Source: an uncultured Gammaproteobacteria bacterium (GTDB lineage: Bacteria > Pseudomonadota > Gammaproteobacteria > Poriferisulfidales > GCA-002705445). From it: a stretch of 57,067 nucleotides of DNA. Shown piece after piece: positions 2 through 57,067 of this stretch. The stretch is taken from contig CAJXAV010000005.1 of the NCBI GenBank assembly GCA_913050095.1, positions 1 to 57,067 of the forward strand. Direction: 5' to 3'. Position numbers and translations under genes: made by a program. Under the pieces are notes generated by a model, which ran no database searches, was not told the origin of the DNA, and saw only the letters and a program-made list of their open reading frames with translations. Numbering within the stretch: position 1 is the first letter of the stretch; the number at the start of each line of letters is the position of its first letter.

Positions 2-532
2 TAATTCTTTCATGCATGATTTAAATTCTAAATCTATTTTTTTATCAGTTTGTATCACTTCTAGAGCTTGATCAACTGATTTTCTCGCGTAAGAATCAAT
101 AGAGTTATGCAAAATTGTTGAGGTGCTATTGCCAAGATGCTCCAATGTTTTTAGGAGTGCAGGATCAATATTTTCATAATTTAATTTTAAAGATAGTCTA
201 GCTATTTTTTCCGCCTCATCTCCAACTCTTTCAAGATCAGTAATGATTCTTAAAATTACTATGATTGTTCTTAAATCAGTTGCAACAGGAGTTTGAAGAG
301 CTAATATTGTGTTGCATTTTTCATCTATATCGATTTCTAACTTATTAACCAAAAAGTCGTTTGTTGCAACCTTTTGAGATAATGAGCTCTCGTTATTTAT
401 TAGCCCGCGTAATGCATCTACATATGATGATTCTACTACCCCAGACATCTCAAGAGTTTTAGATTGTATCTCATTCATAGCTTCATCATAAGATCGTGAG
501 ATATGCCCAGTATTTCCTTGATTTTCTTTCAT
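2..532 (-). CDS. phoU: Phosphate signalling/transport regulator PhoU (3' end runs off the window)
   Basis: Not in the ORF track. Translated by hand from ATG at 532: MKENQGNTGHISRSYDEAM...KLEIDIDEKCNTILALQTPVATDLRTIIVILRIITDLERVGDEAEKIAR, containing the PhoU QxPVAxDLR and DLERxGD motifs. Adjacent to pstC. Confidence 0.93.
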   Translation of the reverse strand, partial: MKENQGNTGHISRSYDEAMNEIQSKTLEMSGVVESSYVDALRGLINNESSLSQKVATNDFLVNKLEIDIDEKCNTILALQTPVATDLRTIIVILRIITDLERVGDEAEKIARLSLKLNYENIDPALLKTLEHLGNSTSTILHNSIDSYARKSVDQALEVIQTDKKIDLEFKSCMKEL

Positions 533-3171: not shown

Positions 3172-4044
3172 ATGTATAATACAGACGTAATGAATGATAA
3201 TAAAAATATAATTGATAGCGACGACTTAATTAGCCAAACCCCTTCTAAACTGGATAATGCAAAAACAGTTGGAAATATTCACGTTGAAGATCCTCGAATA
3301 ATCGCTAAAAATATAAATGTATACTATGACAATAAAATTGCTATAAATAACGTAAGTATTGATATTGGTAAAAATGAAGTTCTCGCTATGATTGGTCCAT
3401 CGGGGTGTGGTAAGTCAACTTTTTTAAGATGCTTTAACAGAATGAATGATACGATTGAGAGTTGTATAGTTGAAGGTGAGTTATATTTAGATAATGAAAA
3501 TATCTTGGATAAAAAAACAGATGTCGTTCCACTTAGGGCAAAAGTAGGTATGGTTTTTCAAAAGCCTAACCCTTTCCCAAAATCTGTTTATGATAATGTT
3601 GCATATGGCCCAAAAATTCACGGGATGGCTAAAAATAAAATTGAATTAGATGAAATAGTTATAAAAAGTTTAGAAAAAGCTGGGCTTTATGAAGAAGTAA
3701 AAGATAGATTAGATACTCCTGGCACAAGTTTATCTGGAGGCCAACAACAACGTTTGTGCATCGCAAGAACAATTGCTGTTAACCCAGAAGTTATTCTTAT
3801 GGATGAACCTTGCTCAGCTCTTGACCCAATTGCAACTGCAAGAATTGAAGAGCTAATATACGAATTAAAAGAGAATTTTACAATTATTATTGTTACGCAT
3901 TCTATGCAACAAGCTGCTAGGGTTTCACAAAGGACCGCCTATTTTCATTTGGGTAGTCTAATCGAAGTAGGTTCTACTGATAAAATCTTCACAACACCAC
4001 AGCACAAATTGACAGAATCGTATATTACAGGAAGATTCGGCTAA
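3172..4044 (+). CDS. pstB: Phosphate ABC transporter ATPase PstB
   Basis: Walker [46 protein letters not shown]-terminal YITGRFG. The start may be the ATG at 3190. Confidence 0.97.
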
Positions 4045-4056
4045 ATTCGCAAAAAA

Positions 4057-5358
4057 TTATGTTTTTGGAAATACGCAAGTAAATTTACTACCTTCATTAA
4101 TAGCGCTTTCTATTTCTAATTTTCCATCGTGCCTATTTATTATATGTTTAACAATTGACAGGCCTAAGCCAGTTCCACCGTGTTCCCTGGAACGTCCCTT
4201 ATCAATTCTATAGAACCTCTCGGTTAATCTATCAACTGATTCTTCAGGAATACCTGCACCATAATCTTTAATATAAAATTCAACTTGATTTTCGTTTCTG
4301 GCAAGGTAATTTATTTCTATTTGAATATTTTTTCCAGAATAAGCAATAGCATTTGATAATAAATTTATTAACGCGCTATATATCTCTTCATATGATCCTT
4401 TAATAAAAATATCATTATCAGATAGTACAGTTACATTATTCTTATTTTTTAAAGCTTCTGGCTTACATGCTGTTTTAATTTCGTTCGCCATAGTTTTAAG
4501 ATTAATTTGAGAAAAATCCTTATCTGGTATATCTGTCGATTGAAGTTTAGTAAGTTTTAAAAGGTCACTTATAAGAATATCCATTCTTTTTGATTGCTTA
4601 AGCATTTCTGAAATTATATCATCATCAACATATCCATCATCAGAAAAACTCAATGTCTCAAGGTATCCAAATATTACAGTTAAAGGAGTTTTTAGCTCAT
4701 GAGAAACATTTGCGATAAAATCTCTTCTCATTTTATCAAGTTGATCAGATTCAGAAACATCTCTAAAAGTTAGGAGATTCCTGTCTTCGCCATAAGGAAC
4801 CATAAAACATTTTATTGTTAGGTCATACTTTAACGGTGAGATAAAATTGATAGATGATCCTACTTTATTTTTTTTTATAAATCCTGCAAATGATGGGTTT
4901 CTGATCATATGCGCTATTGGCTTGCCAATATCTATCTCTTTTAATGATAAAATTTTTACCGCAGCTTTGTTAAACCATTCTGTTTCAAAATTCTTATTCA
5001 CTACTACAATAGCATCAGGCATTGATTCACTTAATTCCTCAAATCTTTTTTCTAATGCTAATAATTTTTCCTGAACTATATTATGATTTTTAAAATCAGA
5101 ATTAACTTTTGATACAAGATTTTGATGTTTTTGATGGTATGTGCTTGATTTATTTATTTTAAAATTATAAAGCCATTTCTCAAAAATATAATTTGTATAA
5201 AGAATATATATTATAAAAATACTTAACGAGAAAATCAGACTGTATAAAAATTGATTAAATAAATGACCGATTACTAGTCCGGCTACTATCAATAATATTA
5301 ATTTTATTAGATCACTTGTAACCGAATAATTTTTAAGTTTATTATCCTGATCATTCAT
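4057..5358 (-). CDS. phoR: Phosphate regulon sensor histidine kinase PhoR
   Basis: PAS region, RRDFIANVSHELKTPLTVI H-box, ERFYRIDKGRSR..GGTGLGLSIVKH; downstream of phoB. Confidence 0.93.
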   Translation of the reverse strand: MNDQDNKLKNYSVTSDLIKLILLIVAGLVIGHLFNQFLYSLIFSLSIFIIYILYTNYIFEKWLYNFKINKSSTYHQKHQNLVSKVNSDFKNHNIVQEKLLALEKRFEELSESMPDAIVVVNKNFETEWFNKAAVKILSLKEIDIGKPIAHMIRNPSFAGFIKKNKVGSSINFISPLKYDLTIKCFMVPYGEDRNLLTFRDVSESDQLDKMRRDFIANVSHELKTPLTVIFGYLETLSFSDDGYVDDDIISEMLKQSKRMDILISDLLKLTKLQSTDIPDKDFSQINLKTMANEIKTACKPEALKNKNNVTVLSDNDIFIKGSYEEIYSALINLLSNAIAYSGKNIQIEINYLARNENQVEFYIKDYGAGIPEESVDRLTERFYRIDKGRSREHGGTGLGLSIVKHIINRHDGKLEIESAINEGSKFTCVFPKT

Positions 5359-8545: not shown

Positions 8546-10420
8546 ATGATACGTTTTAGTTCAATTTTAACCATCTATTTATTTTCAAATATTGCATTTG
8601 CATATAGCGATGAAGTCCCATTAATTTATATTTCACCTAACCCTAGTAATATTTTACTAGATAACTACTCTGGCAACGTAGAAACTATAAAATTAAGTAA
8701 AAAAAATATAAATTTTTCGCTATCAGATATTTTAAAAAATAAAACTAGTTTGTCGCTAAGTCAATCAGGAGGAATTGCGAGCCAAAATCAGTTAAGAATT
8801 AGAGGTGGTGAAGCAAACCATGTGCTAGTTTTGATTGATGGTATAGAAGTAAATGATGCAGCATCAGGATCCGAATATGATTTTTCACATTTATTTTTAT
8901 TCAATATTAGCGAAATTGAAATTCTAAGAGGTGCTTACAGTAATGTTCATGGTACTGATGCAATGAATGGTGTCATAAATATTAAAACTATAAATTCAAA
9001 TGCAGCTAATTTAACCACAGGAAGTAATAATACAAGTATTAAAAATTATTCAATAAAAGGTGAAAATAAAGTTTTTCAATATGGAGTAGATCTTAATTTA
9101 CTTGAATCTAGTGGAGTTGATACAAGTGGTTCATCAGGTGACAGGAATAGATATGAAAATGATAATATTAAGTTAAATATAAAATCAATAAATCATAATT
9201 TTACAATTCTCTATTTTGATATTTACAGACAAAATGATAGGGATGCATTTGGGAACGTCTCTGATAACCAAAAAGCTACAACTGATATAAATCAGATATA
9301 CTCTAAATATGAATATAGTAAAATGCTTTCAAAAAATATTTATTCAAAACAGGGTTTGCAATATTCTATAAATAAGAATTTAGACTCAAGTCCAAGTAAT
9401 GGGAAGTGGGAGTCAATTACACAGTCCGAAAAATTTAAAATTTTTTCTAACACGTCTATAAGTCTCAAGAATATATTAAAATCAACATATACCCCAACTG
9501 TAAGTTTTGGCTTTGAATATGAGAAAATAAATTTTACTCAGTTGATAGAAGACGATACTTATGGAGATGGAAATCAAATGCAAAAAGAATACAGCGGTTC
9601 CTTTAGTGCAGAACTAATATATCCTATTAATAATTTTCAATTTGATTTATCAGCTAGAAGAACTATAAATCAAAAATTTTCTAATAACAATACACATAGA
9701 GCTGGAATAACTTATATATTAGATAATGGTAAAGTTTTTTTTAATCATTCTACAGCTTTTAAAAATCCAACTTTTACTGAGAGATACGGTTATTATGCTG
9801 GTACATTTAATGGTAACGAAGATCTTAAACCTGAAAGCACTCGTCAATATGAGCTAGGTTATTCGTACAATATTTTTGACAATAATATAAATATTAGTCA
9901 GACATATTATAATATGAAGCTTAAAAACGAGATAAATGGTTTTGTAAGCGATGAAAATGGAAGTTATACAGCTAAGAATATGGGGAATAGGAGTCATAGG
10001 AGAGGACTAGAAACGAAAATTAATTATGATATAAACAAAACGACTAATTTATCTATATCACACGATTACGTTGACTCAACACAATTTAATGCAACTAATA
10101 GCACTCAAGAACAAGAAGTTAGAAGACCAAAAAATATAATAAATATTAATTATAATAAAATAATTAATAACAACATAAACATAAATACAAATTTATTTTA
10201 TTCATCAAAAATTAAAGATACAGATTTTAGCTCATATCCTTCAGTAACAAAACATCTTAGTGATTATTATTTACTTAATACTACAATAAATTTTGATTTA
10301 GATAATACCAATAAAGTATCAGTTATATTCAAAAATATATTTAATCGCGACTATGAAGAAGTTTATGGGTACCATTCACCTGGTTTTGAGATGTTGTTAA
10401 ATTACAAAAGAAGTTTTTAA
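8546..10420 (+). CDS. TonB-dependent outer-membrane receptor, BtuB-like (substrate uncertain, possibly cobalamin)
   Basis: Signal peptide, plug motifs RIRGGEANHVLVLIDG and IEILRGA..GVINI, LKPE motif, KNIFNRDY and C-terminal Phe. Confidence 0.85.
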   Translation: MIRFSSILTIYLFSNIAFAYSDEVPLIYISPNPSNILLDNYSGNVETIKLSKKNINFSLSDILKNKTSLSLSQSGGIASQNQLRIRGGEANHVLVLIDGIEVNDAASGSEYDFSHLFLFNISEIEILRGAYSNVHGTDAMNGVINIKTINSNAANLTTGSNNTSIKNYSIKGENKVFQYGVDLNLLESSGVDTSGSSGDRNRYENDNIKLNIKSINHNFTILYFDIYRQNDRDAFGNVSDNQKATTDINQIYSKYEYSKMLSKNIYSKQGLQYSINKNLDSSPSNGKWESITQSEKFKIFSNTSISLKNILKSTYTPTVSFGFEYEKINFTQLIEDDTYGDGNQMQKEYSGSFSAELIYPINNFQFDLSARRTINQKFSNNNTHRAGITYILDNGKVFFNHSTAFKNPTFTERYGYYAGTFNGNEDLKPESTRQYELGYSYNIFDNNINISQTYYNMKLKNEINGFVSDENGSYTAKNMGNRSHRRGLETKINYDINKTTNLSISHDYVDSTQFNATNSTQEQEVRRPKNIININYNKIINNNININTNLFYSSKIKDTDFSSYPSVTKHLSDYYLLNTTINFDLDNTNKVSVIFKNIFNRDYEEVYGYHSPGFEMLLNYKRSF

Positions 10421-55478: not shown

Positions 55479-55488
55479 GTCTTTTATT

Positions 55489-55725
55489 TTAAGCTTGCTT
55501 TAATAACTTAGAAACCCTTTCAGATGTCTGTGCACCTACCGATATCCAATAATCAATTCTTTCTTGATTGATATGCAGCTTTATCTCCTGACCAGTTGCC
55601 ATAGGATTGAAGAATCCTAATCTTTCTATGTAACCACTACCTCTTCTTTTTCTAGAATCAGTTGCTACTAAATGATAGAAAGGCTTTTTCTTGGCGCCAC
55701 CTCTTGATAATCTTATTTTTACCAT
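55489..55725 (-). CDS. rpsP: 30S ribosomal protein S16
   Basis: [34 protein letters not shown]. Start placed at 55725. Confidence 0.97.
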
Positions 55726-55815
55726 ATTAACAAATCGCTCTTCGACATATTTTTTTAGAATGGGTATTCTACTTGAAAACATACTAATAAGTAAAGATTA
55801 TACTTTATCAAAGTG

Positions 55816-55821
55816 TATAAT
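55816..55821 (+). promoter_or_regulatory. -10 element of the host tRNA-Leu promoter
   Basis: TATAAT 10 bp upstream of the tRNA 5' end; no convincing -35. Confidence 0.5.
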
Positions 55822-55831
55822 ATTCCAAAAT

Positions 55832-55870
55832 GCCGCTGTGGTGGAATTGGTAGACACGTCGGATTCAAAA
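55832..55870 (+). pseudogene. 5' half of host tRNA-Leu(CAA), truncated after the anticodon loop (probable att junction)
   Basis: GCCGCTG-TG-GTGGAATTGGTAGACAC-G-TCGGA-TT-CAA-AA, then GTATTC instead of the TCCGA needed to close the anticodon stem. No variable arm, T arm or CAGCGGC acceptor strand in the rest of the window. Confidence 0.88.
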
Positions 55871-55933
55871 GTATTCATATATCCTTTGTTTTACTCTACA
55901 ACCTTTTACATACAACATTCTTAGTTAATAATG

Positions 55934-55972
55934 GACTCGGACTCTACTCGGACCCTTGCTGACCGACTCGGT
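55934..55972 (+). repeat. ACTCGG direct repeats (candidate integrase arm-type sites)
   Basis: ACTCGGAC at 55935 and 55946 (11-bp period) and ACTCGG at 55966; GC-rich patch in an AT-rich background. Confidence 0.6.
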
Positions 55973-56011
55973 AACGTAAATGGTCTGAGTTTAAAAAGAA
56001 ATAAGAAGTTC

Positions 56012-56093
56012 TAGTCGTGGTCGGACTCGAACCGACATGTCTTGCGACAAGGGTTTTTGAGACCCTCATGTATACCAATTCCATCACACGACC
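56012..56093 (-). tRNA. tRNA-Leu (CAA), element-borne, no encoded CCA
   Basis: Minus strand GGTCGTG-TG-ATGGAATTGGTATACAT-G-AGGGT-CT-CAA-AA-ACCCT-TGTCGCAAGACAT-GTCGG-TTCGAGT-CCGAC-CACGACT-A: all stems pair, long variable arm, discriminator A, followed by GAA rather than CCA. Confidence 0.93.
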
Positions 56094-56145
56094 AGATGAT
56101 TTTATTTTATCAGTCAAAGTTGTTTGTTACTAGATGGTTAAAACA

Positions 56146-56655
56146 TTAATTACTACCAAATAGTCTCCAGTTAATCTGAGTTACCATTAACCACATATAA
56201 AATAATGCCTCTAATATTAAAATGAACCATACAAAAAAAACATGTATGTCATTTCTATCCAGAAAATCCTTTGTTAACATTGTAATTGGAACTATTGAGA
56301 GAAAGTATAAAACCCCCAATATATTTTTAAAAATAGATGGTTCAAAGTTTCTTAAATACTCTTCTTTCGCCTTATTTTTTTTTGCTTGTTTTTGGTCAAC
56401 AATATAAGAAATATTTTTCGGTTTATCGTTTACCCATATTGCTTTAAATTCTGTCCCATCAGGGAAACTTATTTTTCCTTCACCGCACATTTTATCATTT
56501 TCCCAATTTCCTGAATAAAATGTCCCTGGAGATATTTCTGTTTTAAGATGCCAACCTTCTTTATTTTTGTTTGTAACCGTAAAATAATTATTCTCTTTAC
56601 GAAGTAATTTTATTTTTTCAGTTAAATAATCTTCAAGGTTTATTTGTGTTTTCAT
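56146..56655 (-). CDS. Hypothetical membrane protein with MORN-like repeat
   Basis: FYSGNWENDKMCGEGKISFPDGTEFKAIWVNDK matches the MORN pattern; two C-terminal hydrophobic helices. Confidence 0.72.
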   Translation of the reverse strand: MKTQINLEDYLTEKIKLLRKENNYFTVTNKNKEGWHLKTEISPGTFYSGNWENDKMCGEGKISFPDGTEFKAIWVNDKPKNISYIVDQKQAKKNKAKEEYLRNFEPSIFKNILGVLYFLSIVPITMLTKDFLDRNDIHVFFVWFILILEALFYMWLMVTQINWRLFGSN

Positions 56656-57065
56656 TTCTTTTCACATTTGTGCATTTCTAATCGACCCGTTTTCATGCCC
56701 CAACTAGCAAATTTATCAACTGTATTTAGTTTCCAATAATACTTTTTTCCTTTATTACTTGTATAACTACCTATAACTAAGTTTTCTGTTGATTCTCTTG
56801 GAGTTCTGTATTCAAAATCACCTTCATAAAATGAATCTATGTTAACCCAATTAAGAGGATCACCATAAGTATGTTGTGCATACTCACCGATTGCCTTAGG
56901 ATAGAATCCTGCTGCAAAATCATTAATTTGCTTTTTAACAATACTACTTTCTTTACCACTAACATTAAGGATACTTAATCTAGCATTTTCATCAAAGAAT
57001 GACTTTTCTCTAGATCCTTTACTACTAATATCATCATCCCAAGTTATTACCTGACCATTACTTAT
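56652..57065 (-). CDS. Hypothetical protein (5' end beyond the window)
   Basis: Open frame translated by hand: ...ISNGQVITWDDDISSKGSREKSFFDENARLS...KYYWKLNTVDKFASWGMKTGRLEMHKCEKK*. Its TGA overlaps the next ATG (ATGA coupling). Confidence 0.72.
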   Translation of the reverse strand: MSNGQVITWDDDISSKGSREKSFFDENARLSILNVSGKESSIVKKQINDFAAGFYPKAIGEYAQHTYGDPLNWVNIDSFYEGDFEYRTPRESTENLVIGSYTSNKGKKYYWKLNTVDKFASWGMKTGRLEMHKCEKK

Positions 57066-57067
57066 AA

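Follow-up and report, generated by a model that had tools for sequence, protein, structure and literature searches.

Probable replacement of a split host tRNA-Leu(CAA) gene by the tRNA of a small integrated element in a streamlined marine gammaproteobacterium

The DNA considered here, referred to below as the window, is a contig of 57,067 nucleotides (nt) from an uncultured gammaproteobacterium (CAJXAV010000005.1 of assembly GCA_913050095.1), and near its right-hand end the host gene for tRNA-Leu(CAA), next to rpsP, breaks off at the anticodon loop. Our reading, which we consider probable for this genome, is that positions 55832-56094 are the left attachment junction (attL) of a small site-specific element that disrupts the host gene and replaces it with a tRNA-Leu(CAA) of its own. 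Disruption with complementation was the proposal of the original prediction, and for the element family it is now supported by all four forms of attachment (att) site, by junctions at which the host tRNA is not restored and by the same-anticodon tRNA that the element carries. What can be read most directly from the sequences is the anatomy of the four att forms, the family membership of the integrase and the compensatory evolution of the tRNA. The window is the entire contig C5 of the source genome (G000), a 39-contig draft of 1.08 Mb with ~30% G+C, rated 96% complete; the organism is a streamlined marine gammaproteobacterium, not SAR11.

How firm is the break? On the plus strand all 39 nt of 55832-55870 agree with the beginning of the 87-nt tRNA-Leu(CAA) that adjoins rpsP in relatives (G003/G010), a gene which where intact is 100% identical across six species of the genus. 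When the window was compared by blastn with the rpsP loci of relatives, the match stopped exactly at 55870 in 10 of 12, the two exceptions being G003, where it continues to 55922, and G014, where it stops at 55808 and resumes at 56009-56139. The claim that the host gene is intact through the loop TTCAAAA and then stops is borne out by that identity and that end point, and ARAGORN calls no tRNA at 55832-55870. Three independent metagenome contigs have the same arrangement or part of it: L138 spans the break (55603-56139, 95.7% identity over 539 base pairs, bp), L136 covers 55795-56139 at 91.9%, and L132 has the same element arm as the window. The orphan 5′ half of L138 (oriented positions 231-269) has one substitution, G to A at tRNA position 9, within a host flank 97.8% identical to that of G000; it could be early decay or an error. 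Empty-site relatives, for which a search had been proposed, do exist, with the intact gene beside rpsP. Among the 17 genomes of the family the full host-type gene is found in 11, G000 has the 5′ half only and G014 the 3′ part only, and the remaining four, which are incomplete (73-92% complete), show neither a host half nor the full gene. A second intact host-type tRNA-Leu(CAA), which would have made the broken copy a decayed duplicate, was not found on any of the 39 contigs of G000, where ARAGORN lists 23 tRNA genes in all, only one of them with a CAA anticodon, the variant described next, and no tRNA-Arg(CCT). In four public runs (fragmented contigs) no record crosses 55870 with at least 31 letters on each side; parts of 55904-56800 are uncovered in runs X2-X4, holes from which no conclusion is drawn. 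One 435-nt record of X3 matches 55488-55870 with one difference and continues with 52 letters unlike the window, and could be an empty site or another allele.

What does the element bring in place of the missing half? A complete tRNA-Leu with the same anticodon, about 140 bp further on, on the other strand and with different stems, had been described from the letters of the window, and the description is upheld: ARAGORN calls a tRNA-Leu(caa) at 56011-56094 of the minus strand, 141 bp beyond the loop, and at 56012-56093 the Rfam tRNA model, whose gathering score is 29, gives 53.3 bits. This variant tRNA is 82-84 nt long, its stems differ from those of the host-type gene, and its cloverleaf has a minimum free energy of -25.8 kcal/mol. 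Its discriminator A73, G18G19 and long variable arm are presumably leucine identity features. The 14 full-length copies fall into two alleles, A with 12 identical copies and B with two (G014 and L129). Carriers of allele A include G000, the integrase-bearing contigs L131 and L133, and contigs whose host flank is ~85% identical to that of G000 over 261 nt. Between the alleles 14 positions differ, of which eight form four doubly changed pairs (2:80, 10:26, 28:44 and 29:43 in 82-nt numbering); no pair is altered on one side only, and the other differences fall in the T loop and in the tetraloop of the variable arm. Both alleles fold into the same cloverleaf, with 24 pairs of which every one is standard, a pattern that points to a tRNA under selection. 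As a same-anticodon tRNA beside attP, with compensatory changes between its alleles, it also fits the proposal that the element supplies the CAA tRNA, and it is presumably expressed and leucylated. Among the leucine codons of 602 long open reading frames (ORFs) of G000, 11.5% are UUG. Within the family the variant occurs in two of 17 genomes, G000 and G014, the latter copy (minus strand, 2538-2621) being 80% identical to the former. A search of IMG/VR with the T-arm and acceptor pattern of the variant returned 0 contigs. Two large phage contigs, L123 and L124, match the pattern of the D arm and anticodon arm; their tRNA-Leu(CAA) differs elsewhere and they were rejected as generic. The best match in the phage collection is a tRNA of HTVC011P, at 73% identity, a literature lead and not evidence of element homology.

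The att sites were recovered largely from metagenome contigs scanned with the T-arm and acceptor pattern, which gave 13 loci. ARAGORN calls the variant in 12 of these, the exception being the end-truncated L132, and an intact host-type tRNA-Leu(CAA) in 0 of the 13 and none in the G014 locus. The bacterial site (attB), the two junctions (attL and attR) and the element site (attP) were all found, and the only sequence common to them is TTCAAAA or (G)ATTCAAAA, 7-9 nt that are the anticodon loop; the minimal att core that had been proposed is therefore what the four forms share. The far junction is seen in three places. G014 is a congener with ~71% identity in the rpsP region. A single contig of it spans rpsP to tRNA-Arg(CCT) and lacks a host-type tRNA-Leu(CAA), and at G014:C10:3786-3843 lies the host 3′ part (positions 30-87), 95% identical and preceded directly by element DNA ending GGATTCAAAA. 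Its three substitutions in 58 nt, two of which break the variable-arm and T stems, show that this orphaned half is decaying. The 4.6-kb contig L136 has the host 5′ half at 38-76, the variant at 218-301 (minus strand) and a 100%-identical 3′ part at 2146-2201, its two junctions having only ATTCAAAA in common. L137 has a G000-type arm and tRNA, 1.6 kb of cargo, then arm-GGATTCAAAA-3′ half and tRNA-Arg(CCT). Where the original prediction had proposed a search for the other junction, it was thus met with in G014, L136 and L137 but not on the other contigs of G000. Likewise, its claim that the host gene is not rebuilt stands for those three, whereas for G000 it is an extrapolation from them, and one relative, G003, has a restored tRNA.

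In the window the element arm has direct repeats, CTCGGAC at 55936 and 55947 and CCGACTCGG at 55963, and a motif AACCTTTT at 55900. Its counterparts in L138 and L132 have 92-95% identity to it and that in L136 has 85%, the first ~52 bp of the window arm are homologous to an arm in G003, and equivalent arms flank attP beside the integrase in L129 and L131. The distance from variant to core is 111-152 bp, except in L130 where it is ~325 bp. In a set of 16 variant copies, what stands before the closest upstream core is the host 5′ half in seven and an element P arm in seven, and in two the contig start cuts it.

Three contigs, L129, L131 and L133, hold what we take to be the autonomous form, with the gene order integrase, tRNA, attP. 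An ORF of 411, 386 or more (cut) and 401 amino acids (aa) respectively lies on the strand of the variant tRNA and stops 8-36 bp short of it. It matches the PHROG_1 integrase (E 3.5e-16), and a profile search gives its family 970 relatives at E<=1e-3. In a 50-sequence alignment R242, K274, R346 and Y378, which we take to be the catalytic set of tyrosine recombinases, are invariant, and 38 of the 50 family members match PF00589; the ORF is accordingly predicted to be a divergent tyrosine integrase. At 110-150 bp past the tRNA lies attP, consisting of a P arm, the core GATTCAAAA or TTTTCAAAA, and a P′ arm, with arm repeats that are the same on both sides (AATCGGACAC twice in L129, GTGGACAC twice in L131 and L133). 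Outside the core attP has no similarity to the host tRNA, the shared stretch ranging from TTCAAAA to GATTCAAAA.

How, then, might the arrangement come about? The element would insert in the 7-nt anticodon loop of the host tRNA-Leu(CAA) beside rpsP. Its autonomous form would consist of a tyrosine integrase, its own tRNA-Leu(CAA) directly downstream on the same strand, and then attP, and strand exchange by the integrase, which presumably catalyses the recombination, would take place within TTCAAAA. Recombination would part the host gene, its 5′ half coming to lie on one side of the element and its 3′ half on the far side, neither completed by element DNA because attP matches the host tRNA only in TTCAAAA or (G)ATTCAAAA. 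The element tRNA just inside attL would take over the CAA anticodon. For the copy in G000 the far end would lie in an assembly gap together with tRNA-Arg(CCT), a gap which we infer to hold no intact host copy. The features of the window that enter into this are collected in Table 1.

Table 1. Features at the right-hand end of the window, with the host gene upstream and the cargo downstream of the tRNA break
Feature	Positions	Strand	Description
rpsP (ribosomal protein S16)	55489..55725	-	ORF; 88-91% identical to S16 of relatives; last conserved host gene before the tRNA site
Upstream region of host tRNA-Leu(CAA)	55786..55831	+	conserved in relatives; putative promoter role
Host tRNA-Leu(CAA) 5′ half, host side of attL	55832..55870	+	acceptor 5′ strand, D arm, anticodon-stem 5′ strand, anticodon loop
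Common core TTCAAAA, the 7-nt anticodon loop; putative crossover region	55864..55870	+	sole stretch common to attB, attL, attR and attP
Element arm (P′ arm), 141 bp	55871..56011	+	putative arm-type integrase sites; binding function presumed
Element-borne variant tRNA-Leu(CAA), allele A	56012..56093	-	G1-U72, A73, long variable arm with GCAA loop
Cargo ORF, 169 aa, MORN repeat and C-terminal hydrophobic segments	56146..56655	-	Pfam MORN, E 6.4e-07
Cargo ORF cut by contig end, 137 aa seen	56652..57067	-	no family

Several observations weigh against this reading and need to be set beside it. The contig stops 1.2 kb past the break, so that only attL is visible in G000 and neither a far junction nor any integrase could be seen in the window. 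The other 38 contigs of G000 contain no host 3′ half, acceptor 3′ end or P arm by regular expression and blastn with six P-arm sequences, an absence that is uninformative because the usual neighbour, tRNA-Arg(CCT), is also unassembled. A protein search found the element integrase in 0 of 41 genomes (G000 and 40 relatives); the tyrosine integrase that the original prediction suggested looking for is found beside variant tRNA and attP in L129, L131 and L133, but none of its family is in G000. Pfam does not recognise these three integrases directly, and a search with PF00589 is blind to them for that reason. The search returned in G000 only two ORFs of 300-330 aa, of types that are both also in the other 16 family genomes where assembled and are presumably Xer-like housekeeping genes, and elsewhere a 408-aa ORF in G007:C2 and a weak match in G002:C4, neither of them at the tRNA-Leu locus. 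No relatives of the integrase or of other element ORFs were found in IMG/VR or the phage collection; the sole IMG/VR integrase match, L140 (29% over ~100 aa), is without the tRNA and was set aside. A PDB sequence search with the integrase gave nothing meaningful, and a homologous-protein search for the element ORFs returned only the query’s own cluster. A simple scan of the minus strand upstream of the variant tRNA revealed no sigma-70-like promoter, and our guess would be co-transcription with the upstream ORF. Then there is tRNA-Leu(UAA), present on contig C28 of G000. It may read UUG by wobble, and the variant tRNA may therefore be dispensable. A further point comes from G003 (G003:C2, 2016-3010), where the gene breaks off after TTCAAAA just as in G000 and the initial ~52 bp of the arm are homologous; an insert of 870 bp, in which two small ORFs lie on the minus strand, separates the break from an intact tRNA-Leu(CAA). 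There a 60-bp exact direct repeat, comprising 21 nt of upstream sequence and the 39-nt 5′ half, runs into the intact tRNA, so restoring variants of the system exist.

Could the element of G000 be of that restoring kind, its far end carrying a copy of the promoter and 5′ half, with an intact tRNA in the gap and the variant a redundant passenger? The likeness of break and arm in G003, and a gap that hides tRNA-Arg(CCT) as well as any 3′ half, speak for it. The restoring insert of G003, however, has no variant tRNA, and those contigs with a G000-type arm and variant that reach the right junction (L136 and L137) all end in a non-restoring arm-core-3′ half, as does G014. Moreover, the variant is always 111-152 bp from the core (~325 bp in L130), which argues for a functional link rather than chance cargo, and we regard restoration in G000 as unlikely. 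Less probable still is that the 5′ half is old debris of island turnover and the variant a horizontally acquired second tRNA that landed nearby by chance. In every relative the stretch between rpsP and tRNA-Met varies, 10-14 kb of it having no homology, G003, G008:C6 and L136 contain additional tRNA halves, and the G000, G014, L136 and L137 copies are without a mobile gene, all of which such turnover would accommodate. Against it stand a break at the same nucleotide in independent genomes, arms with paired repeats, and the same variant tRNA beside an integrase and complete attP in L129, L131 and L133, with integrase 3′ remnants adjoining the tRNA in L127 and L134. As for an assembly chimera at 55870, the break is only 1.2 kb from the contig end and the last 258 bp have another context in four public runs; the joint is nevertheless carried by the independent contigs L138, L136 and L132, and G003 shares the break and ~52 bp beyond it, so this explanation was rejected as very improbable indeed. 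Disruption with replacement by the element’s own tRNA is the reading retained in what follows.

What else does the element carry? In the window the MORN ORF occupies the position that the integrase has in the autonomous form, there is no integrase remnant beside the variant tRNA, and because that ORF adjoins the tRNA instead of an integrase, the G000 copy has most likely arisen as a derivative that is no longer autonomous and may be fixed, within an island seeded at the tRNA. The MORN ORF has an 81% DNA match at G010:C7:319-736. Unrelated cargo ORFs, including MORN-repeat and secreted-looking proteins, are found at the integrase position in G000, G014, L135, L136, L137 and L138. MORN-repeat cargo recurs in the island (56146-56655 of the window, L136 1371-1895 and L033 6285-8378), confirmed by Pfam for the window and judged by eye for the others. 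A further observation concerns the contig tip: its last 258 bp, 56810-57067, recur without a difference in contigs of four public runs (records of 649-3415 nt), and these part from the window just before 56810, which may reflect a recombination joint in the cargo ORF, an assembly-breaking repeat or a chimeric contig tip. Most copies of the element are 0.45-2 kb, without integrase and often in tandem, with the tRNA kept. In L127 the whole insert is ~450 bp, little beyond the tRNA. The remnants of the integrase 3′ end beside the variant tRNA, ~200 bp in L127 and ~155 bp in L134, show decay from the autonomous form. Tandem growth is apparent too. L130 has two variant tRNAs 1.5 kb apart, and in G014 P-core-P′ is followed by arm-core-3′ half. 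In L132, L135 and the second L130 copy the two arms have different repeat types, whereas true attPs have matching repeats, and mixed arms would be expected if a second element had inserted in tandem at a junction already present. The extra 3′ parts, one in L136 at 4375-4432 (91% identical, 2.2 kb further on) and one at the contig start in G008:C6:59-116 (93% identical), are probably right junctions of older integrations. The tRNA-Leu(CAA) site is, in short, a hot spot at which small elements collect and decay.

The nature of the autonomous form deserves a word. L129 encodes a serine resolvase/invertase (oriented 3262-3867; PF00239, E 1.9e-41). After attP L131 has an 80-aa ORF (347-589) that by eye is ribbon-helix-helix (RHH)-like, and a 196-aa ORF (847-1437) with an HUH-like HYHCNLH stretch, for which there is a weak Atlas lead to the replication protein (Rep) family PF23343 (17% of one cluster). 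Six other ORFs scanned in L129 and L131, besides integrase and resolvase, had no PHROG match, and no phage structural gene is seen in the autonomous form, whose longest contig is 6.2 kb. The resolvase, the possible Rep and the RHH-like ORF are hints that the element is a small replicon and not a tailed phage. Taken jointly, these findings allow a more tentative reading, which we think possible and rather less likely than its negation, in which the autonomous element is a non-phage integrative replicon of a few kb, with integrase, resolvase and possible rolling-circle Rep, that holds tRNA-Leu(CAA) hostage; deletions that spare only the tRNA would yield cassettes flanked by att sites, devoid of integrase and with exchangeable cargo (MORN-repeat and secreted proteins), in tandem and movable in trans. 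If true, there would be an integron-like cassette array in an anticodon loop, with the host tRNA gene permanently replaced by a mobile-element allele, as in G014.

The setting of the locus explains some of what G000 leaves out of sight. The order rplS-trmD-rimM-rpsP and then tRNA-Leu is conserved between G000 and relatives. In the relatives what follows is rpsP, tRNA-Leu(CAA), 0-3 kb, tRNA-Arg(CCT), 10-14 kb of variable DNA, tRNA-Met and a conserved block, and tRNA-Arg(CCT) comes after tRNA-Leu(CAA) in 8/8 relatives’ loci with enough sequence. The conserved block beyond tRNA-Met corresponds to the start of contig C12 of G000. The end of C5 and the start of C12 probably enclose a single unassembled island, with tRNA-Arg(CCT) inside it, and the stretch past 57067 is an assembly gap inside a hypervariable island. 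The start of C12 itself (G000:C12:1-20) falls a few bases inside tRNA-Met(CAT), the far boundary of the island in relatives (loci L031 and L034). Elsewhere, a site in G007 (~9970-10350 within the segment G007:C2:15400-35399) has a 408-aa integrase-like ORF (PF00589, 36.9 bits) in a 5.7-kb insert flanked by blocks that in G000 adjoin the tRNA-Ser genes of C28 and C25; the family would seem to have here another island site linked to a tRNA.

How does this compare with known integration into tRNA genes? In classical elements, as Williams reportedly set out in 2002, attP carries the 3′ or 5′ part of the tRNA and so restores it. Crossover in the anticodon loop and lambda-like arms are common to those elements and the present one, whereas the identity block of 7-9 nt here contrasts with several tens of nt there, and because it is so short there is no functional tRNA at either junction in G014, L136 and L137. 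The principle of disrupting and replacing is already known, from actinophages (PMC10865867) and from pelagiphages of marine SAR11 (10.1101/410191). In actinophages of the K4 and L clusters, including Fionnbharth, it is termed tRNA-dependent lysogeny (Guerrero-Bustamante and Hatfull 2024, PMC10865867), defined there by a short non-rebuilding core and a same-isotype phage tRNA required for survival of the lysogen; the term is also used for Sinorhizobium prophages. A short non-rebuilding core and a same-isotype element tRNA are both found here, in G000 from attL only. As in the account of the actinophages, there is a tyrosine integrase, attB is in a host tRNA that is not rebuilt (with a core there of ~10 bp) and paired arm-type sites flank the attP core (PMC10865867). 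Unlike there, integration here takes place in a streamlined marine gammaproteobacterium and at tRNA-Leu(CAA), with the 7-nt anticodon loop as core; the autonomous form shows no phage genes over the 6.2 kb seen, and most copies are tiny and integrase-less. The 2024 authors asked how widespread such integration is (PMC10865867).

Closer in ecology are the HTVC019P-type pelagiphages of SAR11 (Zhao et al. 2018, 10.1101/410191), of which HTVC019P, 025P, 119P and 200P split the host tRNA-Cys or tRNA-Leu mid-gene without complementing it, the phage tRNA being ‘likely used instead’, and sister pelagiphages restore the tRNA through a core at its 5′ end. Those restoring and non-restoring sisters parallel G003 and the present element family, and a streamlined marine host and the order integrase, phage tRNA-Leu, attP, the same as in the HTVC011P record, are further likenesses (10.1101/410191). 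The pelagiphages differ in being ~40-kb podoviruses of Alphaproteobacteria with tRNA-Cys, Leu(TAG), Leu(TAA) and Arg as targets in that account (10.1101/410191). What follows attP here is the RHH-like 80-aa ORF and the 196-aa ORF without a family, with no phage RNA polymerase, and by BLASTP the element integrase has no similarity to that of HTVC011P (E 1.6). The tycheposons of Prochlorococcus (Hackl et al. 2020, 10.1101/2020.12.28.424599) are small cargo elements with tyrosine recombinases specific for one tRNA, and the tandem integrations separated by partial tRNAs, the degenerate remnants and the growth of an island at a tRNA are as described for them. There the island tRNA is described as staying full length, with ~40-nt partial tRNA repeats flanking the elements (10.1101/2020.12.28.424599), whereas here a full-length tRNA after integration is seen only in G003 and the host tRNA is split in G014, L136 and L137.

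What appears new, in literature searches not aimed at earlier reports for this gammaproteobacterial group, is the lineage of the host together with the target gene, a core that has shrunk to the anticodon loop, and tiny, mostly integrase-less tandem carriers that always keep the tRNA. The principle is extended to another abundant genome-streamlined marine lineage, with a core that is the smallest possible, the anticodon loop itself. It provides a concrete route by which a mobile-element tRNA allele can permanently replace that of its host, and a way to build tRNA-seeded flexible islands from cassettes. A genome listed as having ‘one tRNA-Leu(CAA)’ may, accordingly, depend on a foreign gene.

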